Notes: generated from the letters alone by a model not told the origin. A DNA stretch of 57,097 nt from a virus (IMGVR_UViG_3300031977_001254:1-57097); one strand, 5' to 3'. Shown: positions 10,915 through 52,566, numbered from the stretch's first letter. A program made the numbers and translations.

Positions 10915-10918
10915 AAGC

Positions 10919-10947
10919 TTTACTTTTTAAATCTACTGGAGTATAAT
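10919..10947 (+). promoter_or_regulatory. Sigma70-like promoter
   Basis: TTTACT-17 nt-TATAAT. Confidence 0.6.
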
Positions 10948-10949
10948 AT

Positions 10950-11467: not shown

Positions 11468-11478
11468 GGAGAACTGTC

Positions 11479-12471: not shown

Positions 12472-12496
12472 CTTTATGTCAAAAATATACGATAAT
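12457..12496 (+). promoter_or_regulatory. Tandem late and sigma70-like promoters for gp32
   Basis: TATAAATA 12457-12464; TTGACT-17 nt-GATAAT 12468-12496; AT-rich leader follows. Confidence 0.7.
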
Positions 12497-12557
12497 ACAA
12501 TCTGTAATATAACTGTTAATATTTAAGTAATACAATTTAATATATAAGGAATACAAT

Positions 12558-13502: not shown

Positions 13503-13526
13503 TTCTGACACCCCATGACGTCCTTT

Positions 13527-13552
13527 AGCCACCTTCGGGTGGCTTTTTTTTT
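13527..13552 (+). terminator. Rho-independent terminator with UUCG tetraloop
   Basis: AGCCACC-TTCG-GGTGGCT-T run. Confidence 0.9.
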
Positions 13553-15125: not shown

Positions 15126-15131
15126 CTGTTA

Positions 15132-15320
15132 TTAACCTTTTTGCTTAGACCTTTCAGTCTTTTCTTTAATATCTTCTATTAACATAGTGAGATATATCTC
15201 CCTCTCCCAAGGCATCATCGTTTCAACTTCATCTAGTGAATAATGGTAGTTATTCATTAACTGAAAATTAACCTGATAATAATTTGTCAAGTTATCATGA
15301 GAGAGGTTGATTAAAAAAAA
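15132..15320 (-). CDS. gp51: gp51-like baseplate hub assembly protein (open frame; start uncertain, probably reached by frameshift)
   Basis: Hand translation FFLINLSHDNLTNYYQVNFQLMNNYHYSLDEVETMMPWEREIYLTML...; PWER motif. Confidence 0.75.
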   Translation of the reverse strand, partial: FFLINLSHDNLTNYYQVNFQLMNNYHYSLDEVETMMPWEREIYLTMLIEDIKEKTERSKQKG

Positions 15321-16018
15321 TCATCCATTCCCTTTAACGTCCGAACGTTATCATGCCCACAACTTGTACAAGTATATTTGATGTCTTGGAACACAAACGG
15401 AATACCATTTATGAAGTTAGCCATCATATCATATTGACTTGTTGTCATAGACTCAATAAACGCTATAACGTCTTCACGCGATTCTTCTTTCATCGAAATA
15501 CGTTCTTCTTCCGTATGTACCGATTCCATACAAATTAGCATGAGTTCGAATATAGCTTCGGCGCTTGTCTTTGCTTGAGAAAGTGCTTCGTTATTTAAAA
15601 ATTCTTCATATGTTGGATATCTCATCTTCACTGCGATATCCGGAGTTATTTGTAAAACAGGATCTACGACTTCATTAGAGATCTCTGACTTATCAAGATC
15701 TACTTTGACGTTGTTTCTTGTTTCACATTCACTACACGGTATTTCAATTTCTACCGTTTCGCCCACTGACTTTGATCTAATCATCGTAAACAGATAATCA
15801 ATATCAAACGTAGTCAATGGTGTTTTAACTTCAACTTCTAAACAGGACTTTATTGTTCTTGTGATAGCTCGAAGTAAATCCTTTCTATCTTGTGTCTCAA
15901 GAGCAATCAATAAATTCTTCTGTTCTTTCACTAGGAATGGGCGGTATGTTGCCAACTGTCCAGTGGAAGGAATTGTCACTTCATAACTCGGTGTAGAGTT
16001 TAATTTAGGTAATGCCAT
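15311..16018 (-). CDS. gp26: Baseplate hub subunit/chaperone gp26
   Basis: MALPKL..P.Y...IPSTG....YRPFLVKEQK.LL, IRSKSVGE, two CxxC, ends DFF. Confidence 0.85.
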   Translation of the reverse strand: MALPKLNSTPSYEVTIPSTGQLATYRPFLVKEQKNLLIALETQDRKDLLRAITRTIKSCLEVEVKTPLTTFDIDYLFTMIRSKSVGETVEIEIPCSECETRNNVKVDLDKSEISNEVVDPVLQITPDIAVKMRYPTYEEFLNNEALSQAKTSAEAIFELMLICMESVHTEEERISMKEESREDVIAFIESMTTSQYDMMANFINGIPFVFQDIKYTCTSCGHDNVRTLKGMDDFF

Positions 16019-16033
16019 TTTATAGTCCCATTG

Positions 16034-16666
16034 TTAAATGTCGAACTTGATTCCTCGGTTCAACGTTGATAATAAATCTCTCTTGACTTCCCAGTTTGTA
16101 TATGAAAACTGAACTGTCATTTCAACTAACCCATCTGGGTCATTTGTTAATTCTATTCCTGATATAGTAGTTGGGAATGCATCTATCAACTCAACTGTAT
16201 AGATTGAGTTAGCAAAGAAGTCAAACCCGATATTAAATATACCACCAATACTTATCTCTTTGCTATACTCCTGTCCAAGTATGCCTGTACCGTCTGGTTT
16301 GCGTAGTTGGTGTATAGTAACGCGCTTGGCGTAATCTTTCTTATAACCAACCTCACCGCGTTTCTCTCCGACCATTAGCTTACGCCACTCATCGAAATAC
16401 AGCTTAGTGTGGTAATCATTAAGGACGTAGAATGTCATAGACACATCATCAACAAGGAAACCATCAACAATCTTTTCATTATAAAGACCAATGTTAAGAT
16501 CCTTTGTGGTGACCTGCTTTCCAGGCATGGTGACGCTTTTACACATAAGGTTTAATGTGCGTCCAGTAAATCCACCAATCGTTGGTAGCTGAACAGCAAA
16601 CTGGTTGGTCATCGCCACACCATTTGCTCTATTCATCTGGGACTTTAATTGTTCTATACTAGCCAT
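16034..16666 (-). CDS. Tail tube initiator gp54-like (gp19 fold)
   Basis: C.SV.MPG...DDV.MTFY...YF.EW...FP......L...V.F.Y tube-fold pattern; synteny. Confidence 0.65.
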   Translation of the reverse strand: MASIEQLKSQMNRANGVAMTNQFAVQLPTIGGFTGRTLNLMCKSVTMPGKQVTTKDLNIGLYNEKIVDGFLVDDVSMTFYVLNDYHTKLYFDEWRKLMVGEKRGEVGYKKDYAKRVTIHQLRKPDGTGILGQEYSKEISIGGIFNIGFDFFANSIYTVELIDAFPTTISGIELTNDPDGLVEMTVQFSYTNWEVKRDLLSTLNRGIKFDI

Positions 16667-17249
16667 TGATCATCTTCCTACTGTCTGAATATACTTTCTG
16701 ACTATTACTCTTACGGAAATCAGCAGTTGGCAAGAACGTCGCTATCTCCCATTCTGGTGCAGGCACCAACGCAAAGTTACCTTGTACTTGGCTATTAAGG
16801 TAATGCTTAACGCATGGTTTAAAGTACTTCAGTTTTGCGGTTGAAGCTAACAACGCATATGTTGCTTTAAATCTAGTTGCGTTGGTAAACTTCTTATCTG
16901 ATGTAATATCCATTAAGCCATCAAGCATCTTAGCTCGTAGCTGTGGTGGTAGGTAATGAAGGTTCAACCCAAGGAATCCACCTTCGGCTGGACCAATCAC
17001 AACAACCAACGGAAATCTATCATAATACGGCAGAGTGTCTTTATGCTTCGGATCGTAGAAGAACATATACATTGAACCAACTATCTCACTACTTGTCTGT
17101 TTTAGTGGTTCAGACTTCATTAAGTTATCTCGGTTGATACTGCGCATATTTTTAATCTTGTTCATGAACCAAGCGCGGGATTCCTTTGTGCGTGGCGTGA
17201 TACCAGCACGGAATGCTTCGATCTCTAGTTTTTGAAATAGATTAGACAC
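16659..17249 (-). CDS. gp2: DNA end protector protein gp2
   Basis: MFFYDPKHKDTLPYYDRFPL, GLNLHYLP..R. Confidence 0.9.
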   Translation of the reverse strand: MSNLFQKLEIEAFRAGITPRTKESRAWFMNKIKNMRSINRDNLMKSEPLKQTSSEIVGSMYMFFYDPKHKDTLPYYDRFPLVVVIGPAEGGFLGLNLHYLPPQLRAKMLDGLMDITSDKKFTNATRFKATYALLASTAKLKYFKPCVKHYLNSQVQGNFALVPAPEWEIATFLPTADFRKSNSQKVYSDSRKMING

Positions 17250-17276
17250 TTATGTCTCCGTTAAAAAATATAAATC

Positions 17277-17284
17277 TATTTATA
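17277..17284 (-). promoter_or_regulatory. Late promoter for gp2
   Basis: TATAAATA on minus strand. Confidence 0.7.
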
Positions 17285-17285
17285 A

Positions 17286-17807
17286 CTATTTTTTAGATTT
17301 CTTTCTCGGAGTGAACTTCTTTAGTGGTTTGAATGCGAACTTGCCCTTGGGTTTTTGAGTTGACTTGGGCATAATACCCATAGCGGTGAGTTCTTTCTCT
17401 GTCCATATCTCAAAATGCCAACCACGGTCAAGAGCAAATGCTTTGGCTGCATGCCATTTAGATTGGTTCTTTATGTATGTCATACTCTCATTCAATAATG
17501 TTTGCCGACGTTTACCTTGTTTCTTTTCTGGTTTTAATGTCTGGGCATATGGCTTAACTTCAACCAGAATCTTCTTACCATCAGAGAACTGAATCGCAAA
17601 GTCCATAAAGTATCGATGTGGCTTCTTATCAGTCTGACAGATATAAGGTATGACAACTTCTTCAGAGACCCATTGAGTGACGTTGGTATTTTCGTCGCAC
17701 CACTTCATAACGTGACGCTCCCACATGCTTCTGTACACTACATTATCAGGATCGCCTGCATATTTTTTAGGGTTCTTTGGTTTGTATCTTCCTTTATATG
17801 TTTTCAT
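17286..17807 (-). CDS. gp4: Head completion nuclease gp4
   Basis: YKGRYKPKNPKKY.GD, YRSMWE, W.SEE..IPY, HRYF.DF, EVKP; start placed at ATG 17807. Confidence 0.9.
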   Translation of the reverse strand: MKTYKGRYKPKNPKKYAGDPDNVVYRSMWERHVMKWCDENTNVTQWVSEEVVIPYICQTDKKPHRYFMDFAIQFSDGKKILVEVKPYAQTLKPEKKQGKRRQTLLNESMTYIKNQSKWHAAKAFALDRGWHFEIWTEKELTAMGIMPKSTQKPKGKFAFKPLKKFTPRKKSKK

Positions 17808-17821
17808 TATTATTATTTTGT

Positions 17822-17846
17822 TATAAATAGTTAACAAGTATTTATA
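17822..17846. promoter_or_regulatory. Face-to-face late promoters for gp48 (+) and gp4 (-)
   Basis: TATAAATA on + at 17822-17829 and on - at 17839-17846. Confidence 0.75.
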
Positions 17847-17859
17847 CCGAGAGCCAAAA

Positions 17860-19059
17860 ATGGAAACTATTGAAGTAAACACAAGCGGACCAAAAGTAGG
17901 TGACGTATTAGATGAACAGAAAGATGACGTAGAGACAACATCAGAATACGAGCCACCAGAAAAAACAGAAACTGCTTCTGAAACTGATTTGCTCGATGGT
18001 CCATTGCGTTATCCTCTTGATCATCAGGATAGATATCAAGCATTCATTAAGTTCAGCCAATATGAGATTGAAGCTGCTACTGGTAGTGACGCTACACAAG
18101 ACGCACTTGAAGGCGGAATAAATGCTACAGCAAAAGCTGTTTCCACAGCTGCTGACGAATCTTCTGGATTTCTTGACTTCGTGGGGGGTTTACTTAGTGA
18201 TGCTGGTGATGCTATTTCAGATGCTATTTTTGGAGATGATGAAGAACCTCAAGACGCTGCCTCGGTTGATGGTAAAGATCCGGATAGTTCACCAATTATA
18301 GTAAACAGACGCGTGACTGGTAAAGGAGATCCAATTACACTATATTTACCAACCGCGTTGACATTTAATGATGGGTTACAATATGATAAACCAGCACTTG
18401 GGTTAGCAGGCGCAACTGCCTTTGAAGCAGCTTCACAAGGCGGTGGAATGTTAGAAGCATTAGGAAATGCAATTACTCAAGAAGCTAAAAGTATGTCCGA
18501 AATGTTTAGTGGTTCTGCAAGTGTGGGCGACTTGGCTAGACTTGGGTCAATTCGTGCTATGTCAAGACTTCCAGGTGCAGGTGCTCTACAAGAAGGTGCT
18601 TCCATTGCCTTCGGCGTAACTCTCAACCCTAATGTACGTGCTTCTTTTAAGGGTGTAACTCTACGTGAATTTACTTTCCAATTTAAGTTTATTCCAAAGT
18701 CTAAAGAAGAATCCAAAGTCGTTGAAGATATTATAAAACGTTTTCGCTATGCTGCATACCCAAATACAATAGCACTAGATGGAACTATCGAAGATGGAGA
18801 CGCATCGGTCGAAACTTCTTTGTCTGCTGGCTATAAGTATCCTGACCTATTTGATATACAAGTTAAATACAAAACAAAGGGGGGAGAAGTTAGAGTAGGT
18901 AATAAATTCCAGAAATGTTTCTTGCAATCAATCTCAACTAATTATAATCCAGGTTCTATGTCATTTCATAAAGATGGTAAACCTGTAGAGATTGACCTGA
19001 CGTTGAACTTTGTAGAAGAAAAAACAATAGACAGAAACTCTATTATGCAAGGATATTAA
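17860..19059 (+). CDS. gp48: Baseplate tail tube cap gp48
   Basis: LRYP, ITLYLP, NP....F.GV..R.F.F.FKF.PKS..E, YP..F.I, L.F.E. Confidence 0.8.
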   Translation: METIEVNTSGPKVGDVLDEQKDDVETTSEYEPPEKTETASETDLLDGPLRYPLDHQDRYQAFIKFSQYEIEAATGSDATQDALEGGINATAKAVSTAADESSGFLDFVGGLLSDAGDAISDAIFGDDEEPQDAASVDGKDPDSSPIIVNRRVTGKGDPITLYLPTALTFNDGLQYDKPALGLAGATAFEAASQGGGMLEALGNAITQEAKSMSEMFSGSASVGDLARLGSIRAMSRLPGAGALQEGASIAFGVTLNPNVRASFKGVTLREFTFQFKFIPKSKEESKVVEDIIKRFRYAAYPNTIALDGTIEDGDASVETSLSAGYKYPDLFDIQVKYKTKGGEVRVGNKFQKCFLQSISTNYNPGSMSFHKDGKPVEIDLTLNFVEEKTIDRNSIMQGY

Positions 19060-19061
19060 TA

Positions 19062-19820
19062 ATGGCATATTTTAGTAAATTCCCTAAAACACTATATTCT
19101 TTTGGAGACGGTAAAGTAGCACTTGCACAGAATTTAACTGTGTATGCCGAAATCATAGACGAATTAAAACAGAATAGTGCTTACTATAAACCATATAATA
19201 TTATAACAGGAGAACGTCCTGATCAAGTAGCATTCAAGTTATATAAAGACCCTAATCTTTATTGGACATTATTCTTATTGAATGACACGTTAAGAGAAAA
19301 GGGATGGCCACTAGATCATTCTGAAGTAATACAAAAAGCTAAAAAAGACTTTCCTGATTATGTTATCCATACTCATGACGAGATCTTTGATAAATTACAA
19401 GTCGGCGAATCAATAATCTGCACTCGTTCTGGTTTACACGGAGACATTGTATATCGTAATTTAAAGAATGGTGATATTACTATTACTAATCTAAGAAAAC
19501 TTCAGGGTGACACATATGTCCCTGTGTTATTCTCGGATACTGATATAAGAGAAGGCGATGAAATAAGAAGCATTAATACTGATGAAACCATTATTGCAGA
19601 GTACTTCACTCCAGAATATTATGCTGCTCGCCACCACATAGACAGCGACGGGAATATTGTTGATTACCTACCATTTACTGGTGTTGGCGAAGATATTGAA
19701 AGAGTAACCAATTTAGAATACTACACTCAAGAAAATGATAAGCTAAAACAAATAAATGTAATTAAACCAATAGTAATCACAAAGGTTGTTAGCGCATTTA
19801 ATGATTCTGTGAGATCGTAA
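19062..19820 (+). CDS. gp53: Baseplate wedge protein gp53
   Basis: YFSKFP, GERPDQVA.KLY, W...L.N....WP, END....I..IKP. Confidence 0.85.
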   Translation: MAYFSKFPKTLYSFGDGKVALAQNLTVYAEIIDELKQNSAYYKPYNIITGERPDQVAFKLYKDPNLYWTLFLLNDTLREKGWPLDHSEVIQKAKKDFPDYVIHTHDEIFDKLQVGESIICTRSGLHGDIVYRNLKNGDITITNLRKLQGDTYVPVLFSDTDIREGDEIRSINTDETIIAEYFTPEYYAARHHIDSDGNIVDYLPFTGVGEDIERVTNLEYYTQENDKLKQINVIKPIVITKVVSAFNDSVRS

Positions 19821-21136
19821 TGAGTAATTTTGCGCCTGAAACTGCCACCCCAGTATTGATTGAAGAAGTACTTATAACTTCTCCGATGAATCCAATTAAA
19901 ATTAATATCGCTAATACTACGGTGGAACTTGAAATATATGAGCATATAGACAAGCCATATACAACTGGATTATTAACTTTTATAGACGGCGACAGGGTAA
20001 TGTCATCACTTAATGTGAGTGGGGCTGAGACTGTAGATATTAAACTTAAAGCCAATACTATCATTTCTAAATCTCGAAACGCTAGATTTTATATTGATCG
20101 AGTTATTACCACCAAGAAAAGTAATGAAAGCAATGAGATGATTCTTCTGCATTTGACTGAAGATATTAACTATCATTCTAATCTACAAAATGTTAACTCT
20201 GCTTATAGTGGTACTCCAACTTCTATAATGAGTAAGATTGCCTCGGATTTCTTAAATACTAAATTTAGTCCAAGCAAAGAACCACCTCAAGCCACGAAAG
20301 TAATTATCCCTAACCTTACTCCATTAAATGCTATGTGTTGGATTAAGAACAAGTTATGTACCGAAAAGGGATATCCGTTCTATATGTTCTCACACTTTGG
20401 TGGTGATGGTTTATACATGGTTGATCTAAAAACCATGATAGATAGACCAGCTATGAATAAGGGTAAACCATATTTGTATTCACAGGCAGTTATATCTGCA
20501 GGTGGCGATGCACCAAACCCAACTGTTATGCGCCGAGTGATGCTAGATTATCAAGTTAATAATACAGAGAATTTGTATAACCTTATAGACCAAGGGATGA
20601 TTGGCGCTACACACCAATCTATAGATGTGACTAAGAATACTAAGTTCGATCATAAACATGATATGAATAAAGTTGTTCAAACCATGGCAGAGGATAACTT
20701 AATAAAACGTAATCCATTATTCTCTGAAAAATATAAGCTTGGTACTGAATCTTATAATAAGATACAAAGCAGACATATATCCCAGATTACAAGTACTGAA
20801 GCATTTGAGGGTTTTAATTCTTATGGCCAAAGTCCTACTAATGGTGAGTATAAATTAAACTCAACTCAAAGGGCAATGGATTCTTTGTTTAAAAAACAAC
20901 CACTAGATATTAAGGTTAATGGACTAGACTTCATAGAAGTTGAGGGAAACAACACTATTGGTAATAAAATAGAAATTAAATTTCCAGCTAACTTAAATGA
21001 TGAAGGTAATAGTTCCGAAAGGTTTGATACTAAAAAATCTGGTGATTATTTAATATATTCAGCTAAACATATTTTCACAACAAATAGCTATGTTGTGTCG
21101 TTAACATGCCTGAAACTTTCAAATGGTGAAGTATGA
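19820..21136 (+). CDS. Baseplate hub protein (gp27-like)
   Basis: IYE.I.KPY.TG, SG.YLI...KH.F; located between gp53 and gp5. Confidence 0.65.
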   Translation: MSNFAPETATPVLIEEVLITSPMNPIKINIANTTVELEIYEHIDKPYTTGLLTFIDGDRVMSSLNVSGAETVDIKLKANTIISKSRNARFYIDRVITTKKSNESNEMILLHLTEDINYHSNLQNVNSAYSGTPTSIMSKIASDFLNTKFSPSKEPPQATKVIIPNLTPLNAMCWIKNKLCTEKGYPFYMFSHFGGDGLYMVDLKTMIDRPAMNKGKPYLYSQAVISAGGDAPNPTVMRRVMLDYQVNNTENLYNLIDQGMIGATHQSIDVTKNTKFDHKHDMNKVVQTMAEDNLIKRNPLFSEKYKLGTESYNKIQSRHISQITSTEAFEGFNSYGQSPTNGEYKLNSTQRAMDSLFKKQPLDIKVNGLDFIEVEGNNTIGNKIEIKFPANLNDEGNSSERFDTKKSGDYLIYSAKHIFTTNSYVVSLTCLKLSNGEV

Positions 21137-41217: not shown

Positions 41218-41688
41218 ATGGCTGATTATACTTTATCATATACAAGGACATTATCATTTGCTGGTAATTATGTTGCCGTAACTTCTTCTCGGGATTATAC
41301 CAGATATCGCGACAGTACATTTTCGCAAGGTTTTACAACAAGCTATGACGGCACGTATTCAAGGGATTATATAGGAAACTATTCAAGGGATTATACAGGC
41401 TATTATAGCAGATCCTTTTCGCGTACAAGAATAGAATCATATGCGGGCGATAGAACACAGAACTTTACTGCTGTCAGAACATCTGTAACAAGTACAAGAT
41501 TCGACGAAGATTACTTTAGTAGAACGCTAAACTATACTACTTATTATTCAAGAGCTAGAGCACAGAACTTCCTAAGAGATTATACCGCATTTTATGGCGG
41601 TTCATACACACGTGTTTGTACTCGTTCATCTGAAGTTGTTACTTGTACAGTGTTTGTTGGCGCGCCACCAGGATTCCAGGAGAACTAA
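41218..41688 (+). CDS. Tyr/Thr/Arg tetrapeptide-repeat protein (156 aa)
   Basis: YSRD/YIGN/YTGY units; AAGGA SD. Confidence 0.75.
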   Translation: MADYTLSYTRTLSFAGNYVAVTSSRDYTRYRDSTFSQGFTTSYDGTYSRDYIGNYSRDYTGYYSRSFSRTRIESYAGDRTQNFTAVRTSVTSTRFDEDYFSRTLNYTTYYSRARAQNFLRDYTAFYGGSYTRVCTRSSEVVTCTVFVGAPPGFQEN

Positions 41689-42473
41689 TGCCAACTTACG
41701 ATTATACAACCACTCAATATTTTTCCAGAACTATAACACGTGCTGGTGGAACATCAGCTGATTTTACTGGGTTTAGTAGAACTGGATACTTTTCAAGATA
41801 CCGCCCTGAAGTCACGAGTACTCGTATTGGTACATACGCCCGAAGTTATTATAATCCCCAAGGCGAACCAAATATATTATTCTACGCTACCTCATACACC
41901 GGAGATTTCGTAGGTAATTTTACTCGAACTACATATGGATACTTTAGTAGAACATCTGTTGAAGATTATACTGGATATTATTCTAGAGCCTTTATCGGGA
42001 ATTACTCTAGAGATTTTGTAGGCACATATTCTAGATCTTCGACTGGAGTCTTTACTGGAACATTCACAAGATCGTATAGCAGAAACTTTACTAGAGATTA
42101 TACAATAACATCTACCAGAACAAGTACATACACACGTACAATATCAGGTGGTTCTGGGGAAGCTCCTACATATACAGCATCGTCAGGTTCTGATGCTGAA
42201 TACGGATTAGTTGTATATGGTCCAGATGGTACTACAGAAATAATTAATCCTACAACGCGAGTTATTAATTTGGCATTCTACGGAACTGTTGCGGTTAACG
42301 CTAACTCATCAGCTACCGTAACAATCGAAGATGTTGGTGATCCTAGTAAAGTCACAGTATCCTTAGTTGTATTCTATGAGGGTATTAATTTAACAACATC
42401 GGGCAATACGTTGACAGTTACTAATACTAGAAATTACAATGTTAGTCCTACCTTAATTGCGATAAGGATTTAG
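41688..42473 (+). CDS. Tyr/Thr/Arg tetrapeptide-repeat protein with C-terminal tail-tip-like beta domain
   Basis: TAATG overlap and AGGAGA SD place the start at 41688; YGLVVY..DG domain. Confidence 0.75.
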   Translation: MPTYDYTTTQYFSRTITRAGGTSADFTGFSRTGYFSRYRPEVTSTRIGTYARSYYNPQGEPNILFYATSYTGDFVGNFTRTTYGYFSRTSVEDYTGYYSRAFIGNYSRDFVGTYSRSSTGVFTGTFTRSYSRNFTRDYTITSTRTSTYTRTISGGSGEAPTYTASSGSDAEYGLVVYGPDGTTEIINPTTRVINLAFYGTVAVNANSSATVTIEDVGDPSKVTVSLVVFYEGINLTTSGNTLTVTNTRNYNVSPTLIAIRI

Positions 42474-43237: not shown

Positions 43238-43708
43238 ATGAGTAAAGTAGTAAAATATGTGGCTACTATTGAGGAAAGTACAGGTCGCATTATGAATGTA
43301 GAATTTCCTCAAGCAACATTAAAGCCAGAAGGTACAACGGATGGGATGACGGTAATCCATATTACTGAAGATAACATGCCAGAAGGGTTCATGAACATTG
43401 GGTGGAATCCAATGCTTCACTTTTGGGATGGTGAGACATTCATTCACGTAGGTACACCGCCTAATCGTCACGCTATATATAATGGTACAGATTGGGAATG
43501 GGATCAAGAGTTATTGGTGAGTGATGTTAGAACACATCGTGACCGTTTACTAGCTCAAAGCGATTGGACTCAAATGCCAGACGCTCCATTCACAGAAGAA
43601 GAAAAGACTGCTTGGCAAGCATATCGTCAAGAACTCAGAGACTTTATGTCTAGTCTACCAAATGAATTTGATTCTGTGCAATCATTATCATGGCCAATTC
43701 AACCATAG
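43238..43708 (+). CDS. Tail fibre assembly chaperone
   Basis: R..RDRLLAQSDWTQ.PD.P......W..YRQELRD...WP..P. Confidence 0.85.
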   Translation: MSKVVKYVATIEESTGRIMNVEFPQATLKPEGTTDGMTVIHITEDNMPEGFMNIGWNPMLHFWDGETFIHVGTPPNRHAIYNGTDWEWDQELLVSDVRTHRDRLLAQSDWTQMPDAPFTEEEKTAWQAYRQELRDFMSSLPNEFDSVQSLSWPIQP

Positions 43709-43894: not shown

Positions 43895-43902
43895 TATAAA
43901 TA
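43895..43902 (+). promoter_or_regulatory. Late promoter
   Basis: TATAAATA upstream of the 2059-aa gene. Confidence 0.75.
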
Positions 43903-43941: not shown

Positions 43942-46900
43942 GTGTCAGCATCTAGTATCCCATTAAAAATACTAAATTCAGATGGTGACCTGAGGGAATT
44001 CACGCCAATAGAAGAAAACTATTTGGCGTATGCAGTCGGACAAGCATTATTGACACCAGATACTGGCTCATTAACTCTTGATCCTAGTGGCGTTGCGGTT
44101 GGTTCATATGTTGATACATATTTCAACGAATCACCTGGAACTCACCCTGCTAGTCAGATCACATCTGGATCAACTACTACGACCTTGCGTCAAGTGGCTG
44201 GACCAGCAAGTGAATCTGGTCAGAATATTCCTGTAGGTTACTACGAACAAGACCCAAATCCAGGCTTCTACGAAATGGTAGACGCGGATTTAACTAATCT
44301 CGCTAAACGTGTATTGGGTAATATGGTCGAAAATGACTATATTGGAACATACAGATTAGCATCTTCTTCTCCAGGTTCTGATTATTCTATTCACATTTCT
44401 AATGTGTTTTCAGATACCCGTGGCGACGGAGCATCAACTAACTATCACATCTATGTCCGTAATTCAATGGCATCTGTTGCAGCAACTCGTCCTGTTCGTA
44501 TTCGTTATGACGGTTCAAGCTTCGACGGCTTCCAAGAAATGACAGACGCTGAGATCCAACAAGTATTGGGTCAACGCATTAAAACATTAAGAGCAAGTGC
44601 AGGCGAGATTGGTTCATACCAGTTACGTTCTTCAGCACAAGGTGCTCCAATCGGTGGTGGTGTATGGAGAGCAGTTGGTACAGCTTTTAATACAAAATTA
44701 ACAACAGCACAGATTGACTATACTCGCACACGTAACTCTGCTTATGTTCAGACTCGCGTGTCGGCATATACTCGTAACCGTATTTCAACTTTTGTTGGTA
44801 CATACTCAAGAACAACAAGCAATGTATTCGCAGGTAACTACATTGGAAACTACTCACGTGGTTTTACTGGTAACTACTCACGTGGTTTTGCTGGTGAATA
44901 CACTGGTGATTTCATTGGCGTATATTCTCGTCTACGTTCTTCTGCATATTCTGCAAACTATACTCGCGAAAGAATTTCAACATATACTGGAACTTATTCA
45001 CGTACTCGTGTAAGCACATACGTTGGTAACTATGCTCGCGCATTTGCTGGCGAATACACTCGTGGGTTTGCTGGTAACTATACTGGTGAGTTTACTCGTA
45101 CTCGTATAAGCTCTTATGTTGGTGTATATGCGCGTACACGTACATCTACTTACTCAGGTAACTACTCAAGAAACTTTGCGGGCAACTATTCTCGTGGATT
45201 TACTGGTGAATACTCTCGTGCATATACTCGCGAACGTATCTCATCATACACAGGAACCTATTCGCGCACTCGTGTAAGTACATATGCTGGTAACTATTCT
45301 CGTGGATTTGCTGGCAACTATAGCCGTGGATTTGCTGGTAACTATAGCCGTGCATTTACTCGTAGCCGTGTATCAGCTTATGCTGGAACATATTCTAGAG
45401 ATCGTGTAAGTACATATGCTGGCAACTACGCTCGCAACTTTATAGGTAATTACTCACGTGCATTTGCTGGTAACTATAGCCGTGCATTTACTCGTGGTCG
45501 TGTTTCTACGTTTACTGGAACATATTCACGTACACGTAATTCATCTTATGCTGGTACTTACTCTCGTGGATTCACAGGCAACTACAGCCGTGCGTTCGGC
45601 GGTAACTATGCTCGTGCGTTTACACGTGGTCGCGTTTCTACCTTTACTGGTGAATATGCTCGTACTCGTAACTCAGCTTACTCAGGTACATATGCCCGTG
45701 GATTCGTAGGTAACTATGCTCGTGGATTCGTTGGTAACTACGCTCGTGCGTATACTCGTGGTCGTGTTTCTACTTTCAGTGGTACATATTCACGTACTCG
45801 CCCATCTAGCTACTCTGCAGACTACACGCGTAATCGTGTAAGCACATATGCTGGTACTTACTCACGTAACCGCGTTTCAGTTTATTCACGTAACCGTGTT
45901 TCTGCTTATGCAGGTACATATGCTCGTAACCGTGTAAGCTCTTATGCTGGTACATATTCACGTAACCGTGTATCATCTTACGCTGGTACTTACGTTAGAA
46001 CTCGTTCAAGCGCATACTCGCGCGTTCGCTTAACTGCGTTTGCTGCTGATTACACAGGCGTTTATACTCGTGCTCGCGCTTCAGTTTATACTCGTGCTCG
46101 TGTAAGTTCATACGCTGCTGATTACACAGGCGTTTACTCACGTAACCGTGTAAGCACATACGCCCGTACTCGTACTTCTGCTTATGCTGCTGACTACACT
46201 GGCACATATTCACGTAATCGTGTAAGTACATATGCTCGTACTCGTAGCTCTGCTTATGCTGGTACATATACAGGCGTTTATTCACGCAACCGTGTATCAA
46301 CATACTCGCGTGCTCGTACATCAGCTTATGCTCGTGACCGTGTAACGAACTTTGCTGGTAACTTTATCGGTAACTATTCACGTGGGTTTGCTGGTAACTA
46401 TTCTCGTGGATTCGTTGGTAACTATTCTCGTGGGTTTGCTGGTAACTATATCGGTAACTATGCAAGAACAAGTACTCGTACTTCTACGCGTGGTCGTGTT
46501 TCATCTTACGCTCGTACTCGTGTTACTAACTATGTTGGCGACTTTACTAGAAACAGACTTGTAACATATACTGGCGATTTCATCGGTAATTATGCAACTA
46601 CATTTACTGGTGACTTCGTAGGCAACTATGCTCGTAACTATGTTGGCGATTTTGCTGGTAACTTTACTGGTAATTATGCAACTACGTTTACTGGCGACTT
46701 TGTTGGTAACTATGCTCGTGGATACGCAGGCAACTATGCTGGTAACTTTGTTGGCGAATATGCCCGTACACGCGTTACTGACTATGCTGGCGATTTCGTA
46801 GGTAACTATGCAACTACATTTACTGGTGACTTCGTAGGTAACTATGCTCGTGGATATGCTGGTAACTTTGCTGGTAACTTTGTTGGTGAATATGCTCGTA

Positions 46901-49900
46901 CACGTGTTACTAACTCAACACGTACTTCTACTCGTACACTAGCTTATACTCGTACATTGTATTACACTGGTAACTATGCTCGCGCATTTGCTCGTACACG
47001 TGTTACTAACTATACAACTACACCTTCATACAGCCGTACTCGTGTAACAAACTATACAACCTCACCTTCGTATAGCCGTGAGCGTCCTTATTACCCAACG
47101 TACTCACGTGAACGTGGTTTCTACTACACTGGCAACTACTCACGCACATTGTATTATGCTGGCAACTATGCTCGTACATTGTATTACACAGGTAATTACG
47201 CTCGTACATTGTATTACACTGGCAACTATGCTCGTACATTGTATTACACAGGTAATTACGCTCGTACAGTTTACTATACTGGTAACTATGCTCGTACAGG
47301 TTATTATGCTGGTAACTATACTCGTCCGATAACTTCGACTAGAACTTCAACGAGAGTCTCTACTCGATATGGACCACCAATGGGTCCAGATCCAGGTGAT
47401 ATTGAGTTCTATACTAGCTACTATACTGGTAACTTCGTTGGAACTGGATATTATACGCGTACTTCAACTCGTTCATTAGTATACACTCGTGCACGCGGTA
47501 TTACTCCATCATATTCTCGTGACCGTGCTTACTATCCATCATATGCTCGTGACCGTGCTTACTATCCATCATATGCTCGTGACCGTGCTTACTATCCAGC
47601 ATATACTCGTAACCGCCCATACTACCCATCGTATGCTCGTGACCGTTTAAGCTACTATACTGGTAACTATGCGCGTACTTACTACTATACTGGTAACTAT
47701 GCTCGTACATTAGTATATACTGGTGACTTCGTAGGTAACTATGCTCGTACGAATGTCTATACTGGCGACTTCGTTGGTAACTATGCTCGCGCATACGCTG
47801 CTGATTATACTCGTACAGGTTATTATACTCGTACAGGTTACTACACTGGTGACTTCGTAGGCGACTTCGTAGGTAACTACGCTCGTACTTCAACGCGTAC
47901 ATCTACACGTACTCGTTACAGTGCATACGCTCGTACTCGTATCACAAACTATGTTGGTGACTTTACGCGTAACCGTGTAACAAACTTTGCTGGTAACTTC
48001 GTTGGTAACTACGCAAGAACTTCTACTAGAACTTCTACACGTACTCGTTACAGTGCATACGCTCGTACTCGTATCACAAACTATGTTGGTGACTTTACTC
48101 GAGTTTCTACACGTAACTCTACCCGTAATCGTTATAGCGCTTATGCTCGTACTCGTATTACCAACTATGTTGGTGACTTCACGCGCAACCGTACAGCAGG
48201 CTATGTTGGTGACTTTGTTGGTAACTATGCGACTACATTCGCAGGTAACTTCGTCGGTAACTATGCTAGAACGTTTGCTGGTGAATATGCAGGTAACTTT
48301 GTTGGCGAATACGCTCGTACTTCTACTCGTACTCGTTACAGCGCTTATGTCCGTACTCGTGTTTCAGCTTATGCTCGCAACCGTGTCTCAACATATGCTC
48401 GTGATCGTGTAACTAACTTTGCTGGCAACTTCGTAGGAAACTACGCAAGAACATTCACTGGTAACTATGCTCGTGGATTCGCTGGTGAGTACACTGGTAA
48501 CTACGTCGGCAACTATGCTCGCAACTATGTTGGTAACTATGCTCGTGGATTCTCTGGTCAGTATGTTGGTAACTACGTTGGCAACTATGCGCGCAACTAT
48601 GTTGGTAACTATGCTCGCGGTTTCTCTGGTCAATACACTGGTAACTACGTCGGCAACTATGCTCGTACATTCGGCGGTAACTACGCAAGAACATTTGCTG
48701 GTAATTACACTGGTAACTATGTCGGTAACTACACTGGCGACTTTACTGGTAACTATAGCCGTGGATTCGTAGGTGAGTACACTGGTACTTACTCAAGAGG
48801 ATTCTCTGGTCAGTATGCTGGCACATATAACCGTACATTTGTCGGTGAATACACTGGTACTTACTCTCGTGGATTCTCTGGTCAGTATACCCGTGGATTC
48901 TCTGGTCAATACGTAGGTAACTATGCTCGTGGATTTGCTGGTAACTATGTTGGTAACTATTCACGTAACTTCGTCGGTGAGTACACAGGCGCTTATGCTA
49001 CCACTTATACTGGTAACTATGCTCGTGGCTTTACTCGTACTCGTGTAAGTTCTTATGCTCGCACACGTACTTCGACATATGCTGGTAACTATTCACGTAA
49101 CTTTGCTGGCGAATATACTGGTGCGTATGCAACTACATACACTGGTAATTATTCTCGCAACTATACACGTTCACGCGTTTCTGCTTACGCTCGAGTTCGT
49201 TCTTCTGCTTACGCAGGTAACTACTCTCGTGACTTTGTAGGTGAATACACTGGTACATATGCGACAACATATACTGGCAACTACTCTCGCAACTATACAC
49301 GTTCACGTGTTTCTGCTTATGCTCGAGTTCGTCCGTCAACATATGCTGGTAACTATGCTAGAACGTTTACTGGTGAATACACTGGTACATATAACCGTGC
49401 CTTTGCTGGTAACTACTCACGTAATTACTCACGTAACCGCGTATCTGTATATGCTCGCACTCGTGTTTCTGCTTATGCAGGTACATATGCTCGTAACTTT
49501 GTAGGTGAATACACTGGTACTTACTCTCGCGGATTCGCAGGTAACTACTCACGTGACTTCACTCGCTTACGTATGTCAACTTACACTCGTTCACGTCCAT
49601 CTGCTTATGCAGGTACATATGCTCGTAACTTTGTAGGTGAATACACTGGTTACTATAGCCGTGGGTTTGCTGGTAACTATTCGCGTGACTTTACACGTAA
49701 CCGTATCAGCACATACTCACGTACTCGTTTCTCAACATATGCTGGCAACTATGCTCGCAACTTTGCTGGCGAATACACTGGAACTTATTCTCGTGGCTTC
49801 GCAGGTGATTATGTTGGTAACTATAGTCGTGGTTTTGCTGGTGAATATACTGGTAACTACACAAGCGTGTTCTCACGTACTCGTGTAAGTGCATATTCTC

Positions 49901-50121
49901 GTTTACGTACTTCAGCTTATAGTGCTGATTATACTCGTGATCGTGTATCAACTTATGTTGGTAACTACATTGGTGAATATGCTACTGGATACACTGGTAA
50001 TTATTCGCGCGACTTTATAGGAAACTATTCAAGAGCGTTTGTAGGTAACTACACTGGTATGACTATCCAACCTACATTTAACATTGTTGAAACATACACG
50101 TTATATGTAAGGGTTGCTTAA
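43942..50121 (+). CDS. Giant Tyr/Arg/Thr/Gly tetrapeptide-repeat virion protein (2059 aa), predicted self-complementary beta-hairpin fibre
   Basis: GTG start; ~259-aa non-repetitive N domain, ~1780-aa repeat region, 19-aa tail; late promoter; fibre-region context. Confidence 0.85.
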   Translation: MSASSIPLKILNSDGDLREFTPIEENYLAYAVGQALLTPDTGSLTLDPSGVAVGSYVDTYFNESPGTHPASQITSGSTTTTLRQVAGPASESGQNIPVGYYEQDPNPGFYEMVDADLTNLAKRVLGNMVENDYIGTYRLASSSPGSDYSIHISNVFSDTRGDGASTNYHIYVRNSMASVAATRPVRIRYDGSSFDGFQEMTDAEIQQVLGQRIKTLRASAGEIGSYQLRSSAQGAPIGGGVWRAVGTAFNTKLTTAQIDYTRTRNSAYVQTRVSAYTRNRISTFVGTYSRTTSNVFAGNYIGNYSRGFTGNYSRGFAGEYTGDFIGVYSRLRSSAYSANYTRERISTYTGTYSRTRVSTYVGNYARAFAGEYTRGFAGNYTGEFTRTRISSYVGVYARTRTSTYSGNYSRNFAGNYSRGFTGEYSRAYTRERISSYTGTYSRTRVSTYAGNYSRGFAGNYSRGFAGNYSRAFTRSRVSAYAGTYSRDRVSTYAGNYARNFIGNYSRAFAGNYSRAFTRGRVSTFTGTYSRTRNSSYAGTYSRGFTGNYSRAFGGNYARAFTRGRVSTFTGEYARTRNSAYSGTYARGFVGNYARGFVGNYARAYTRGRVSTFSGTYSRTRPSSYSADYTRNRVSTYAGTYSRNRVSVYSRNRVSAYAGTYARNRVSSYAGTYSRNRVSSYAGTYVRTRSSAYSRVRLTAFAADYTGVYTRARASVYTRARVSSYAADYTGVYSRNRVSTYARTRTSAYAADYTGTYSRNRVSTYARTRSSAYAGTYTGVYSRNRVSTYSRARTSAYARDRVTNFAGNFIGNYSRGFAGNYSRGFVGNYSRGFAGNYIGNYARTSTRTSTRGRVSSYARTRVTNYVGDFTRNRLVTYTGDFIGNYATTFTGDFVGNYARNYVGDFAGNFTGNYATTFTGDFVGNYARGYAGNYAGNFVGEYARTRVTDYAGDFVGNYATTFTGDFVGNYARGYAGNFAGNFVGEYARTRVTNSTRTSTRTLAYTRTLYYTGNYARAFARTRVTNYTTTPSYSRTRVTNYTTSPSYSRERPYYPTYSRERGFYYTGNYSRTLYYAGNYARTLYYTGNYARTLYYTGNYARTLYYTGNYARTVYYTGNYARTGYYAGNYTRPITSTRTSTRVSTRYGPPMGPDPGDIEFYTSYYTGNFVGTGYYTRTSTRSLVYTRARGITPSYSRDRAYYPSYARDRAYYPSYARDRAYYPAYTRNRPYYPSYARDRLSYYTGNYARTYYYTGNYARTLVYTGDFVGNYARTNVYTGDFVGNYARAYAADYTRTGYYTRTGYYTGDFVGDFVGNYARTSTRTSTRTRYSAYARTRITNYVGDFTRNRVTNFAGNFVGNYARTSTRTSTRTRYSAYARTRITNYVGDFTRVSTRNSTRNRYSAYARTRITNYVGDFTRNRTAGYVGDFVGNYATTFAGNFVGNYARTFAGEYAGNFVGEYARTSTRTRYSAYVRTRVSAYARNRVSTYARDRVTNFAGNFVGNYARTFTGNYARGFAGEYTGNYVGNYARNYVGNYARGFSGQYVGNYVGNYARNYVGNYARGFSGQYTGNYVGNYARTFGGNYARTFAGNYTGNYVGNYTGDFTGNYSRGFVGEYTGTYSRGFSGQYAGTYNRTFVGEYTGTYSRGFSGQYTRGFSGQYVGNYARGFAGNYVGNYSRNFVGEYTGAYATTYTGNYARGFTRTRVSSYARTRTSTYAGNYSRNFAGEYTGAYATTYTGNYSRNYTRSRVSAYARVRSSAYAGNYSRDFVGEYTGTYATTYTGNYSRNYTRSRVSAYARVRPSTYAGNYARTFTGEYTGTYNRAFAGNYSRNYSRNRVSVYARTRVSAYAGTYARNFVGEYTGTYSRGFAGNYSRDFTRLRMSTYTRSRPSAYAGTYARNFVGEYTGYYSRGFAGNYSRDFTRNRISTYSRTRFSTYAGNYARNFAGEYTGTYSRGFAGDYVGNYSRGFAGEYTGNYTSVFSRTRVSAYSRLRTSAYSADYTRDRVSTYVGNYIGEYATGYTGNYSRDFIGNYSRAFVGNYTGMTIQPTFNIVETYTLYVRVA
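44719..50061 (+). repeat. 12-nt (4-aa) periodic coding repeat with 44-aa and 10-aa super-repeats
   Basis: Units [YF]xG[NEDTQ], [YF]xRx, Rx[ST]x, STRx; near-exact 60-bp (47161-47268) and 30-bp (47521-47598) DNA repeats. Confidence 0.95.
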
Positions 50122-50172: not shown

Positions 50173-50228
50173 TATTATACGACTATATAATGACTGAAAT
50201 GAATTTTTAATACCAATTGGAGTTTATA

Positions 50229-50675
50229 ATGGCTAGTAAAAAATGGCTGGATAATGCGTTCTGGGAAACAGAAGAAAAAAATCAACTTAACTGTATCTTA
50301 GAAATTGTTGACGATGAAGGTCGAGAAATTCGACAAGTTATGAAATTAAACCGCAATGAACGTGATGGTTCGCCAAACGAAATGTTTGATGAGGTTGTAG
50401 CTACACTAGGTGAAGAAGCTATTGACCGCGAAACTGCAGAACGTGTAGAGCGTAAAAAAGCTGAAGCTGAAGAAAACAAACAACGTGACCTTGAGCATCA
50501 GAAAGCAAGAAAATTAGAAAAACTTTTCAACTATAAACTAGAAGCGTTTGAAGTTGAAGAGATTAAAAACTCAAAGAACCGAAAACTTAAAGGTAAGTTG
50601 CGTCGAGCTAAATCTCGAATAGAAGTAGATCTATACTCTATTATGATTTTACAAGAATCGCTTGAGGTTGAGTAA
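50229..50675 (+). CDS. Hypothetical protein with charged coiled coil
   Basis: GGAG SD before ATG 50229. Confidence 0.75.
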   Translation: MASKKWLDNAFWETEEKNQLNCILEIVDDEGREIRQVMKLNRNERDGSPNEMFDEVVATLGEEAIDRETAERVERKKAEAEENKQRDLEHQKARKLEKLFNYKLEAFEVEEIKNSKNRKLKGKLRRAKSRIEVDLYSIMILQESLEVE

Positions 50676-50676
50676 A

Positions 50677-51417
50677 ATGGAAAATAAAAGTAAAGGGTTT
50701 GTTATCGTCGCGAGTCGCAATCGCAACTTTTATTTGTATGCTATTAATCTAGCAGAATCGCTTCGAGACTTTTATGAACCTGAAGACGAGTGTAACATTT
50801 GTATTGTTACCGAAGAAAGATTTATTGACGATCGTGGATACGATGTTGCAGATCAAGTTATTTTCTGTGATGACCACTATCGAGCGAAATTGTGGGGTAT
50901 GGCAAGATCGCCATATGACCTTACAATGTATATTGATGCTGATATGGAATGTGAGCACGAAGATATCGTTAAAGTTTGGGATGAGATGAAAGACCATGAT
51001 ATGGTATTCTCTGAACTAACTGATGATCGTGACTACATATATGCAGAACGTGATTTTGATACACCAGAAGGCAAAGCTAAATTTGTCCTTTGTGGTGGCG
51101 TTTGTTTGTATGATATGTCTAAACCAATTGTGCGCGAATTCATGCAAGATTGGTGGGACTTAACCCAAAGGCAGATGAACGATACTTGGTGGCCAGAAGG
51201 TTATGCTGACTCCCTTAAATCTTGGGATCAGTTTAGCTTGTGGTGGTTGACCGAGAAAGAAGAAAAATATAAAGATCTTAAAGTCGGTATCTTTGATGAC
51301 GACTTACGGTGGAACTATTACAACGCTCTTAATTGGGCAAGAACTCAGCCTAAAGATGGACCAGTGATTTTACGTCACTTCTCTGCTGGCTTAGAAAAGG
51401 ATAAACCAATCTTATGA
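50677..51417 (+). CDS. GT-A fold glycosyltransferase (GT8-like)
   Basis: KGFVIVA, K......SPYD.T.YIDAD (DxD), GG..LY, WDQFSLW, RWN, H. Confidence 0.75.
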   Translation: MENKSKGFVIVASRNRNFYLYAINLAESLRDFYEPEDECNICIVTEERFIDDRGYDVADQVIFCDDHYRAKLWGMARSPYDLTMYIDADMECEHEDIVKVWDEMKDHDMVFSELTDDRDYIYAERDFDTPEGKAKFVLCGGVCLYDMSKPIVREFMQDWWDLTQRQMNDTWWPEGYADSLKSWDQFSLWWLTEKEEKYKDLKVGIFDDDLRWNYYNALNWARTQPKDGPVILRHFSAGLEKDKPIL

Positions 51418-52121
51418 CACAGATTAACGACTCATATCTCAAGCACGTGGATGTCAACAATCCAGAACTGTTAGAGATTCTAAACGAATACGCAAGCCTT
51501 CACCAGATGGAAGGGTTTGTTGAAAATTGTCATCTAACAGCAGAAGAACATGCACGTCAACGTCCTCATTGGATGGGTGATACGTATCGTCAAGAAGTTG
51601 TTGATCAAGGATCTGCCCATGAAGGCTTCCCTGATATGTTGGTGGCATATAACTTTAAACTGTCTGAACGCGCTCATACCTTTTTCAAAGGTGATGCTGA
51701 CCCAGTATTCAAACGCGACATGACCCAAAAGCTAGGCGAGCTTAATGACCGCATGATGAACTTCTTGTCGGTTAAGCATAACGCATTGTGTGCAGTATAT
51801 CCTCCAGGTGGATTCATTTCATGGCACAACAACGCAAATGCTCCAGGTTATAACCTAGTCTTTACTTGGTCTGAAACTGGCGACGGGCACTTCTCTTATA
51901 TTCACCCTGAGACAAAAGAAATTGTCAAGTGTGAAGATAGTGCTGGTAAATGGACTTGCAAAGCTGCTTATTTTGGTTCTCATGCTGAACCTGAAAAGCA
52001 ACTGTACCATGCTGCTGAGAGTGAATGTTGGCGCGTTACTGTTTCTTATGTATTTGACTGGAGTGATACTTCAGAAGAATTCCGTGAAATGGTATTAGAA
52101 GATATATCTTCGGAAGTTTAA
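51414..52121 (+). CDS. Cupin/2OG-Fe(II) oxygenase-like protein
   Basis: YPPGGFISWHNN...G.G.F.Y...LYHAA....WRVTVSY double-stranded beta-helix pattern. Confidence 0.6.
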   Translation: MTQINDSYLKHVDVNNPELLEILNEYASLHQMEGFVENCHLTAEEHARQRPHWMGDTYRQEVVDQGSAHEGFPDMLVAYNFKLSERAHTFFKGDADPVFKRDMTQKLGELNDRMMNFLSVKHNALCAVYPPGGFISWHNNANAPGYNLVFTWSETGDGHFSYIHPETKEIVKCEDSAGKWTCKAAYFGSHAEPEKQLYHAAESECWRVTVSYVFDWSDTSEEFREMVLEDISSEV

Positions 52122-52134
52122 TTTAATAAAACAT

Positions 52135-52203
52135 AAAAATCCTAGTTTCTAATTCTTATAAATACATTTAACTGTTTTGTAGGAATTTAGAACTAGGATT
52201 TTT
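52135..52203 (+). promoter_or_regulatory. RNA hairpin containing a late promoter (5' arm) and SD (3' arm)
   Basis: AAAAATCCTAGTT...AACTAGGATTTTT inverted repeat extended by G-U pairs; TATAAATA 52157-52164; AGGA 52195-52198. Confidence 0.75.
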
Positions 52204-52206
52204 TTA

Positions 52207-52566
52207 ATGTCAACAACTTATGAAGACTTTACTATATCTCAAGGTTCGGACGTAGCGTTTGAACTTGAGCTTGTAGAACTTGATGGTTCTACAAAAGACC
52301 TCACTGGATACGCTGTTGAAGCGAAGATGAAAAAGTCTTTCAACAGTGACACCGATAAGACTATTGACTTTACTGCTATCGTTTCTCAACCTGCGACCGA
52401 TGGTATTGTAGTCCTTTCCCTTACAAACGAACAAACAGACGATTTATCTACAAGAGGTAGGTATGTTTATGACGTTGAATTAAGTTACAGCGATAGTGAC
52501 GGTAATTTAATGGTAGAACGCATTCTAGAAGGTAAGATTAAAGTCTCTCCTTCAGTAACAAGGTAA
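52207..52566 (+). CDS. Virion structural protein (Ig-like, BppU-N-like)
   Basis: I.QG.D, DLTGY...A.M.K, G...LSLT..QT, GRYVYDVE, R.LEG...V.P.VT. Confidence 0.7.
   Translation: MSTTYEDFTISQGSDVAFELELVELDGSTKDLTGYAVEAKMKKSFNSDTDKTIDFTAIVSQPATDGIVVLSLTNEQTDDLSTRGRYVYDVELSYSDSDGNLMVERILEGKIKVSPSVTR

Follow-up and report, generated by a model that had tools for sequence, protein, structure and literature searches.

The needle of the T4 fiber protein gp37 is short and six-stranded, with a few tens of residues in each arm. In the cited sources, gp37 is described as an out-and-back antiparallel needle within a phage fiber (PMC7291167), as requiring dedicated chaperones for its folding (PMC3004832), and as holding seven iron ions in the needle on histidine motifs (PMC6957217). 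Here, we analyze a giant protein encoded in an IMG/VR virus record (IMGVR_UViG_3300031977_001254:1-57097; completeness estimate, 35%), the whole 57,097-base stretch of which is referred to as the window. The open reading frame (ORF) of this window protein specifies 2059 amino acids (aa), most of them in tetrapeptide repeats, and the original prediction held that these repeats form one antiparallel β-hairpin of a design that its author knew from no described phage fiber. Antiparallel arms, a turn at about aa 1149, and a base closed by the N-terminal domain together with the C-terminal strand are strongly supported by our data, on the basis of a register found in 16/16 homologs, mirrored insertions and deletions (indels), anti-diagonal covariation, and a model of the relative P0116 (C-terminal strand predicted local distance difference test score (pLDDT), 90–98). 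The original interpretation is supported in part, its single two-stranded hairpin, full-length β-structure, length of 290–300 nm, and role as a virion fiber being predictions.

The window protein resembles gp37 in that its chain would run out to a tip and back, and a fiber-chaperone gene adjoins its gene. It differs in that the gp37 needle is the distal part of a fiber, whereas the proposed hairpin comprises everything between the N-terminal domain and the last 19 residues, with about 890 residues per arm, and its arms are tetrapeptide repeats that follow a pairing rule. The His-x-His iron motif of the gp37 type is absent: there is no histidine in aa 260–2040 and no HxH in the whole window protein. 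A second point of comparison is streptococcal antigen I/II, in which two unlike repeat arrays flanking an apical domain pair into a long stalk (PMC6586375). The window protein likewise has two complementary, non-identical repeat arrays around an apex. However, antigen I/II pairs an α-helical A-region with a polyproline II helical P-region, whereas the base of the arms is modeled as β-strands in P0116, and antigen I/II is a cell wall-anchored bacterial adhesin with few long repeats and no sequence relation to the window protein. The composition of the window protein is also not that of antigen I/II, with 1.0% Pro, 9.9% Ala, and a period of 4 carrying aromatic residues, Arg, and Gly.

The arms of SMC and Rad50 proteins are intramolecular antiparallel coiled coils with arm halves of equal length, whose termini join in a head domain. 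The likeness is an out-and-back chain with the N- and C-terminal parts together at the base; the SMC and Rad50 arms, however, are α-helical heptad coiled coils of DNA-acting ATPases, whereas the window arms have period 4, are rich in β-branched and aromatic residues, and contain 1% Pro. T4 gp5C and gp12 represent the triple-stranded β-helix and β-spiral phage fibers and are presented as trimeric repeat β-fibers of T4-like tails with Gly at fixed positions against larger side chains (PMC3004832). They share with the window protein a repeat-built β-fiber and Gly packing on larger side chains, but their chains are parallel and their repeats translational, whereas the parallel control gave no register for the window protein. 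The β-solenoid repeat class (pentapeptide and hexapeptide) was considered and rejected on account of the antiparallel-specific relation and the variable periods at a fixed register. No description of the family or its design was found in open-access papers and bioRxiv, and the words “antiparallel,” “hairpin,” and “tetrapeptide” are absent from the main text of a tail-fiber atlas paper (PMC12143355). With no His/iron motifs, no helical or polyproline II composition, and no sequence match, the window protein appears to belong neither to the gp37 needles nor to the antigen I/II stalks. As for the predicted novelty, the out-and-back principle, known from T4 gp37, and the pairing of unlike arrays were already described, whereas the scale, the repeat code, and a hairpin taking up the whole protein are not known from earlier examples.

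The tetrapeptide parse of the window protein holds from Tyr-260 to Met-2040, with [YF]xRx, RxSx (or STRx), and [FY]xG[NEDQT] as the main kinds of unit and with period 5 or 10 in place of 4 in the central 300 residues of the repeat region. Using a script, we opposed the N-arm units taken forward from residue 260 to the C-arm units taken backward from residue 2037. The register proved gapless over 185 units (aa 260–999 against 1301–2040), with every unit pair in frame. All 77 Arg- or Ser-initial units (43 in the N arm and 34 in the C arm) were opposite an [FY]xG[NEDQ] unit, all eight YAT[TG] units were opposite an F-initial unit, and the same register matched four inner YARTLYYTGN-type repeats with four of the YARDRAYYPS type. 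The axis at 1149/1150 fell inside the segment GPPMGPDPGD (aa 1144–1153). The observation behind the original prediction held in all its details.

Compared with the 77/77 obtained at this register, all alternatives scored 0.65 or less. When the arms were slid antiparallel by −60 to +60 units, the runner-up was 47/73 (0.64) at +11, which is the spacing of an 11-unit super-repeat; the parallel orientation reached 31/48 (0.65) at best, against 1.00 for the antiparallel one. In 20,000 shuffles of the C-arm units, the mean was 25.1 of 77 (standard deviation, 3.9), with a maximum of 43. A residue log-odds score also peaked at i + j = 2299 (783 bits; next, 260 bits), a peak that is partly circular because the matrix was trained at this very register. 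The mirror register stays fixed although the arm periods vary (24, 36, 72, and 132 nucleotides (nt)). Arrays of 132 nt (44 aa), variable among relatives, are present in both arms, at 44959–45797 and 48952–49806.

The postulated cross-strand code is real, and the coupling sits at tetrad positions 1 and 3. At the register i + j = 2299, position-1 Arg was opposite Gly exclusively (66/66), Phe was opposite Ser or Thr in 64 of 87 cases, and Tyr was opposite Arg (124) or Gly (62) in 186 of 201. Coupling at tetrad positions 2 and 4 was weak.

Mirror geometry of this sort is that of a DNA or RNA hairpin, and its origin could be sought in an inverted DNA repeat, in the folding of a long mRNA into a hairpin, or in opposite-strand coding. 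We consider such an origin next to impossible. No inverted pair is longer than 23 nt (at 74%), and Watson–Crick complementarity at the mirror register is 17.9%, compared with a mean of 24.9% (standard deviation, 5.9) over 601 shifts; DNA or RNA pairing is thereby refuted, and the arms are, as had been proposed, complementary without being DNA inverted repeats. Moreover, the AT skew is negative over both ORF halves and so has the same sign in both arms, and the ORFs on the minus strand do not exceed 133 aa. The G+C content of the ORF (0.435–0.444) is higher than that of most of the window (0.355–0.422).

A search with the N-terminal domain (aa 1–260) retrieved 20 IMG/VR loci and one of 50,697 isolate phage records. 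The 20 IMG/VR loci contain 16 complete homolog ORFs of 850, 1189 (two), 1320 (two), 1510, 1527, 1554, 1575, 1583, 1630, 1837, 1911 (two), and 2282 (two) aa, all of which have the N-terminal domain and the C-terminal end ...E[TS]YTLY[VC]R[VL]A. In all 16, as in the window protein, the best R-over-G anti-diagonal lies at L+238 to L+246 (L, protein length) and covers the stretch that begins where the chain leaves the N-terminal domain and finishes where the C-terminal strand starts. The R units on this anti-diagonal numbered 13/20 in the shortest homolog (L016) and 31/32, 76/86, 78/84, and up to 90/103 in others, with about half as many on the runner-up diagonals. Identical lengths recur in independent assemblies (L002 and L006, L004 and L005, L007 and L008, L013 and L014), which makes assembly collapse unlikely.

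The original prediction had also named mirrored indels in homologs as a check, and the gaps were indeed balanced at mirror sites in ordinary global alignments made without any mirror information. Aligned with L002 (1189 aa), the window protein shows N-arm gaps of 288, 48, and 116 aa and C-arm gaps of 116, 48, and 288 aa, no more than 11 aa off the mirror sites. The net indels of the outer arms were −152/−152 for L003, −112/−112 for L007, and +56/+60 for L004, and the alignments contained exactly equal pairs of 20/20, 16/16, +24/+24, +10/+10, +12/+12, and +40/+40. In addition, a mirror position occupied by R over G in one homolog can show the reverse, G over R, in a second one, which amounts to a compensatory swap (10 of 14 homologs covered). 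Taken together, the single 185-unit register, its conservation over a nearly 3-fold range of lengths, the exactly balanced indels, and the swaps are accounted for only by physical pairing of residue i with residue 2299 − i.

AlphaFold2 modeling of P0116 (436 aa) from a 71-sequence alignment gave a mean pLDDT of 78.1, with values above 90 in the N-terminal domain and of 90, 96, and 98 in the three final 10-residue blocks, which hold the C-terminal strand. In P0116, the first unit starts at residue 278 and the last one at 414, which by the unit rule gives an expected i + j of 694; the model has two long strands, 260–294 and 398–434, with end sums of 694 and 692, their pairing being deduced from strand extents and confidence rather than read as contacts. 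Average product-corrected mutual information linking the base of the N arm with the end of the C arm in the same alignment (A2, MAFFT) was strongest for the pair 274–420, with a sum of 694. Of the 25 top pairs, 14 had sums of 688–697 (19.8% expected, p = 6e-5), the best band of all those tested.

The P0116 model, the repeat part of which is unreliable, had no match at E ≤ 0.001 in Foldseek searches against the PDB, nor against the BFVD viral models. In the VIA wide fold search, the best match was the Mp2Ba1 C-terminal domain (Z 7.1), followed by MACPF-associated and MABP β-prism-like domains (Z 6.6, 6.0, and 5.3), with T4 gp11 at Z 2.8; by the calibration of the tool, Z scores of 7.1–5.3 are middling and do not amount to a family assignment. 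These matches cover model residues 43–436, including the C-terminal strand. ESM Atlas features of the N-terminal domain gave unnamed viral clusters with a best score of 0.85, which serves as a lead only. Neither the whole protein nor the N-terminal domain matched any family in Pfam or PHROGs, and a profile of alignment A2 had no match among PDB sequences at E ≤ 1.

The sole isolate match among the phage records is phage C48C1 (OQ984149.1), whose N-terminal domain is 63% identical. Its homolog (L001) has 3347 aa (ORF 10001–20044) and is preceded by a “tail assembly chaperone.” The N arm (about 267–1295) is unbroken, whereas five or six stretches without repeats, presumably globular, interrupt the C arm (aa ~1801–3270). 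The inner arms have one register, N 875–1164 with C 1502–1791 (257 bits, next best −9). By whole-segment scoring, three of the six outer C-arm segments could be placed uniquely and collinearly; segment 2128–2407 opposes N 574–853, and the final segment, 3256–3327, opposes N 266–337. The three others total 246 residues, with 236 left to fill, and the repeat lengths of the two arms are roughly equal. Local scans with 32-residue windows yielded no placement of C48C1 segments, the repeats being too degenerate. A 75-aa block at about 2010–2082 is copied exactly at 2083–2155, either as a true duplication or as an assembly artifact. On the axis, C48C1 carries a small domain, position 1333 falling within the non-repeat segment ~1296–1369.

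We also observed an apex motif, W/V-N/G-G..V..G...TY.RG, at aa 445–471 in P0021, 739–764 in P0008, 731–756 in P0009, and ~1320–1345 in C48C1. It lies at or near the predicted axis in P0021 (axis 449.5) and C48C1 and about 45 residues past L+242 in P0008 and P0009; the window protein has just the 10-residue Pro/Gly turn at this place.

Mirror complementarity, balanced indels, and covariation would be predicted equally by a 2-fold antiparallel dimer, in which extended chains associate head to tail, as dimers or higher oligomers, and the N arm of one chain lies on the C arm of another; at the level of sequence, the two arrangements cannot be told apart. Several observations nevertheless make this intermolecular arrangement quite unlikely. 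The axis always falls on a Pro/Gly turn-like segment or a small inserted domain (1144–1153 in the window protein, 1333 in C48C1, 449.5 in P0021), the P0116 monomer model seats its own C-terminal strand with the N-terminal domain at pLDDT >90, although a swap would still be compatible with this, and phage fibers are usually fixed by one end. Pairing within a single chain thus appears to be the better account.

In the wider family, the N-terminal domain search of 1.84 billion representatives returned 352 proteins at E ≤ 1e-3, of which 261 also passed E ≤ 1e-10, so that the family comprises at least 352 clusters at 50% identity. The N-terminal domain and the C-terminal motif were both present in 96 of 157 family proteins, and these 96 range from 318 to 2503 aa. 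By eye, short members, and the distant members P0061, P0085, and P0011, carry different types of repeat in the N and C arms, arranged in mirror order; in P0061, initial TRNSTS-type units are opposite terminal FxGD/N units. A whole-protein mutual-information test counted a member as positive when the best of 321 anti-diagonals lay within 20 residues of L+242. The mirror signal was found in 35 of 88 members, about 11 being expected (p = 2e-10), and success varied with length (18/28 below 700 aa, 12/38 at 700–1000 aa, and 5/22 above 1000 aa). This test is crude, with the window protein itself at 685 bits for the best and 642 for the runner-up diagonal, and it was used as an enrichment statistic. 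In P0002 (1798 aa, incomplete), an insert of about 690 aa splits the N-terminal domain; the Pfam matches PF14312 (FG-GAP-like repeat) and PF13385 (Laminin_G_3) in this protein are probably within the insert. Inserts of this type may indicate that binding modules are also grafted onto the fiber base.

The features of the window are listed in Table 1. The neighboring genes are of T4 type and encode a baseplate tail tube cap, subunits of the baseplate wedge, tail-fiber proteins, and a further two giant tail proteins; PHROGs for baseplate wedge and tail fiber are matched on both sides. The baseplate wedge protein shares 48% identity with its C48C1 counterpart and 31–33% with its counterparts in myophages of Methylophilales, Pelagibacter, and Synechococcus. 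A PF16778 chaperone gene is present in 18 of 21 related loci and directly upstream of the fiber gene in 16; in L012 and L015, the PF16778 match is at the start of the locus instead. The four downstream genes are syntenic, at 55–89% identity, in 17, 17, 15, and 13 of the 21 loci, as judged in related loci that extend far enough. Three of them have no Pfam or PHROG family, and the fourth (52207–52566) has a weak match to LtfC-like and L-shaped tail fiber assembly families.

Table 1. Location of the giant repeat protein, its parts, and surrounding features in the window
Feature	Position	Strand	Remarks
Whole ORF	43942..50121	+	GTG start, 2059 aa + stop; homologs begin at matching residues (VSASSIPLK / MSASSIPLK)
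N-terminal globular domain, aa 1–259	43942..44718	+	Conserved family signature
N arm, aa 260–999	44719..46938	+	185 tetrapeptide units
Inner N-side region, aa 1000–1143	46939..47370	+	5/10-residue periodicity, YARTLYYTGN type; 30-nt array 47125–47325
Pro/Gly-rich turn GPPMGPDPGD, aa 1144–1153	47371..47400	+	On symmetry axis, 2299/2 = 1149.5
Inner C-side region, aa 1154–1300	47401..47841	+	YARDRAYYPS-type decamers opposite N-side decamers; 30-nt array 47505–47646
C arm, aa 1301–2040	47842..50061	+	185 tetrapeptide units, mirror-complementary to N arm
C-terminal closing strand TIQPTFNIVETYTLYVRVA, aa 2041–2059	50062..50118	+	Conserved across family
Tail-fiber assembly chaperone gene	43238..43708	+	PF16778 Phage_tail_APC, 66.1 bits (cut-off 26.6); phrog_4912; immediately upstream of fiber ORF
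Late-promoter-like motif TATAAATA	43895..43902	+	40 nt upstream of GTG start
Two small adjoining ORFs, 156 aa and ~262 aa	41218–41688, 41685–42473	+	Y/R/G/S/T tetrad-like repeats (YSRDYIGNYSRDYTG..., STRTSTYTRT...)
Four downstream genes	50217–52566	+	
Giant ORF, 2037 aa	26518–32631	+	Many tail/structural PHROGs in repeated stretches (phrog_2589, 13 stretches)
Giant ORF, 1773 aa	34024–39345	+	phrog_358 (function unknown), 1102 bits

The motif TATAAATA, which we take to be the T4 late-promoter consensus, occurs 10 times in the window compared with 6.3 expected by chance, a count that is not significant. Eight of the 10 copies, however, lie 25–94 nt before an ORF start in the same orientation (12457, 17822, 23341, 32641, 43895, 52157, and 56585 on the plus strand and 17277 on the minus strand), a pattern that agrees with the presence of late promoters of T4 type across the structural module. 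The two small ORFs with tetrad-like repeats have tblastn matches inside the giant fiber ORFs of other loci and no Pfam family; they could be short fibers of this type or act as partners of the large one.

The composition of the repeat region is Tyr 15.5%, Thr 13.9%, Arg 13.6%, Gly 11.8%, Ala 9.9%, Ser 9.3%, and Pro 1.0%, and a residue count of aa 260–2040 found no Cys, His, Lys, or Trp. With 243 basic residues, all of them Arg, against 65 Asp and Glu, this region has a net charge of about +178. A repeat region with Arg only and no Lys suggests a specific role of the guanidinium group, such as stacking on Tyr. The cationic surface of the window-protein subfamily may favor first contact with anionic cell surfaces; charge is not a trait of the family, as the P0011 subfamily is acidic.

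This cationic, Lys-free, Tyr/Arg-rich composition is atypical of known fibers, the protein lacks any family annotation in Pfam and PHROGs, and the fold matches of its N-terminal domain (Z 7.1–5.3, β-prism-like MACPF-associated and MABP domains) are weak and not phage-like. Such properties would suit a folded-back β-fiber with another role, as a decoration of the neck, head, or baseplate or as a non-virion protein made late in infection that binds a cell surface or matrix. The gene context renders these roles unlikely, since the gene lies between baseplate wedge and tail-fiber genes, the PF16778 chaperone gene is directly upstream and recurs in the related loci, mostly just upstream, the four downstream genes are syntenic, and a late-promoter-like motif precedes the start codon. 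The window protein would accordingly be a tail-associated host-capture fiber, a reading supported by the baseplate/tail-fiber module, the late-promoter-like motif, and the adjacent chaperone gene.

We consider a folded-back antiparallel fiber in the tail-fiber module of an uncultured T4-like myophage to be the best overall explanation of these data, and a probable one. In this model, one chain would run out for about 890 residues, turn at the Pro/Gly loop, and come back the same way, so that residue i would stand beside residue 2299 − i over the full length, with the N-terminal domain and the last 19 residues shutting the loop at the base. The arms would be extended strands with a four-residue period, in which tetrad positions 1 and 3 share a face. 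On that face the register would be set, Arg standing opposite Gly, Phe opposite Ser or Thr, and Tyr opposite Arg or Gly, whereas positions 2 and 4 would be small or polar and weakly coupled. The position-1/3 face could either lie inside an oligomer as its core or form a ladder along a ribbon of two strands. β-Structure presumably extends throughout, and the fiber is probably oligomeric; a trimer would give six strands. An extended strand rises 0.30–0.34 nm per residue, and 890 pairs correspond to about 270–300 nm when straight, so that the fiber would measure ~0.25–0.3 μm if straight and less if twisted. Its length would evolve as both arms gain or lose repeat modules in pairs, the 44-aa (132-nt) arrays being one example, and its receptor-binding parts would be at the tip or, in larger relatives, in globular domains along the returning arm.

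Several observations weigh against this explanation. A net charge of about +178 in the repeat region is unusual for a fiber. Within about 150 aa of the tip, the quality of the homolog alignments is low, and indels in the two arms do not pair off cleanly. Residues 294–398 of the P0116 model have a pLDDT below 50, and AlphaFold2 modeling of the 850-aa homolog L016 from a 13-sequence alignment gave a mean pLDDT of 31.6, with about 20 in the repeats. In C48C1, three of the six outer segments have no unique placement, because the opposing N-arm stretch has a 12-residue period, and the 75-aa duplicate, if real, leaves 28 repeat residues unpaired. The mirror signal was missed in most of the distant members (35/88 found), undetected ones not being counted as contrary. 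Finally, the family is known from sequences alone, and its member in OQ984149.1 is annotated as a “hypothetical protein.”

The very low AlphaFold2 confidence across the repeats would also fit a disordered, sticky low-complexity region or a parallel β-solenoid, the mirror being then a by-product of repeat evolution. Phase-separating low-complexity domains have compositions resembling that of the window repeats in Tyr, Arg, Gly, and Ser (15.5, 13.6, 11.8, and 9.3%). However, disorder and a solenoid alike fail to predict a single 185-unit anti-diagonal, its conservation in proteins of 850–2282 aa, balanced indels, or R/G swaps, and parallel alignment gave no signal comparable with the antiparallel one (best 0.65 against 1.00). 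We therefore regard both as very improbable.

The folded-back fiber may represent a new fold class, in which a single chain closes like a zipper into an antiparallel β-ribbon of about 890 residue pairs, present singly or as part of an oligomeric bundle, with its register held in an Arg·Gly, Phe·Ser/Thr, Tyr·Arg, and Tyr·Gly code and its length freely adjustable during evolution through paired repeat expansions, with arms of about 30 to over 1000 residues. We put this a little short of an even chance, and there is a substantial chance that a structure would reveal a new fold class. If so, no longer intramolecular β-pairing would be known, and the protein would lend itself as a natural template for the design of β-fibers of chosen length with domains at defined positions of the returning strand. 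The pairing rule is simple and can be tested by design; should it hold, it could be reused for long β-fibers of defined length.

These results show that the long-range topology of a giant protein can be approached from sequence alone through compensatory changes and mirrored indels, a type of evidence usual for RNA, in a case in which structure predictors fail on the protein itself. They also bring to light a large unannotated family that derives almost wholly from uncultured phages. The confinement of globular inserts to the returning arm in the larger relatives suggests a general way of displaying binding modules along a fiber. The extreme variation in length on a fixed base would make fiber reach a testable host-capture trait, for example, in dilute waters.

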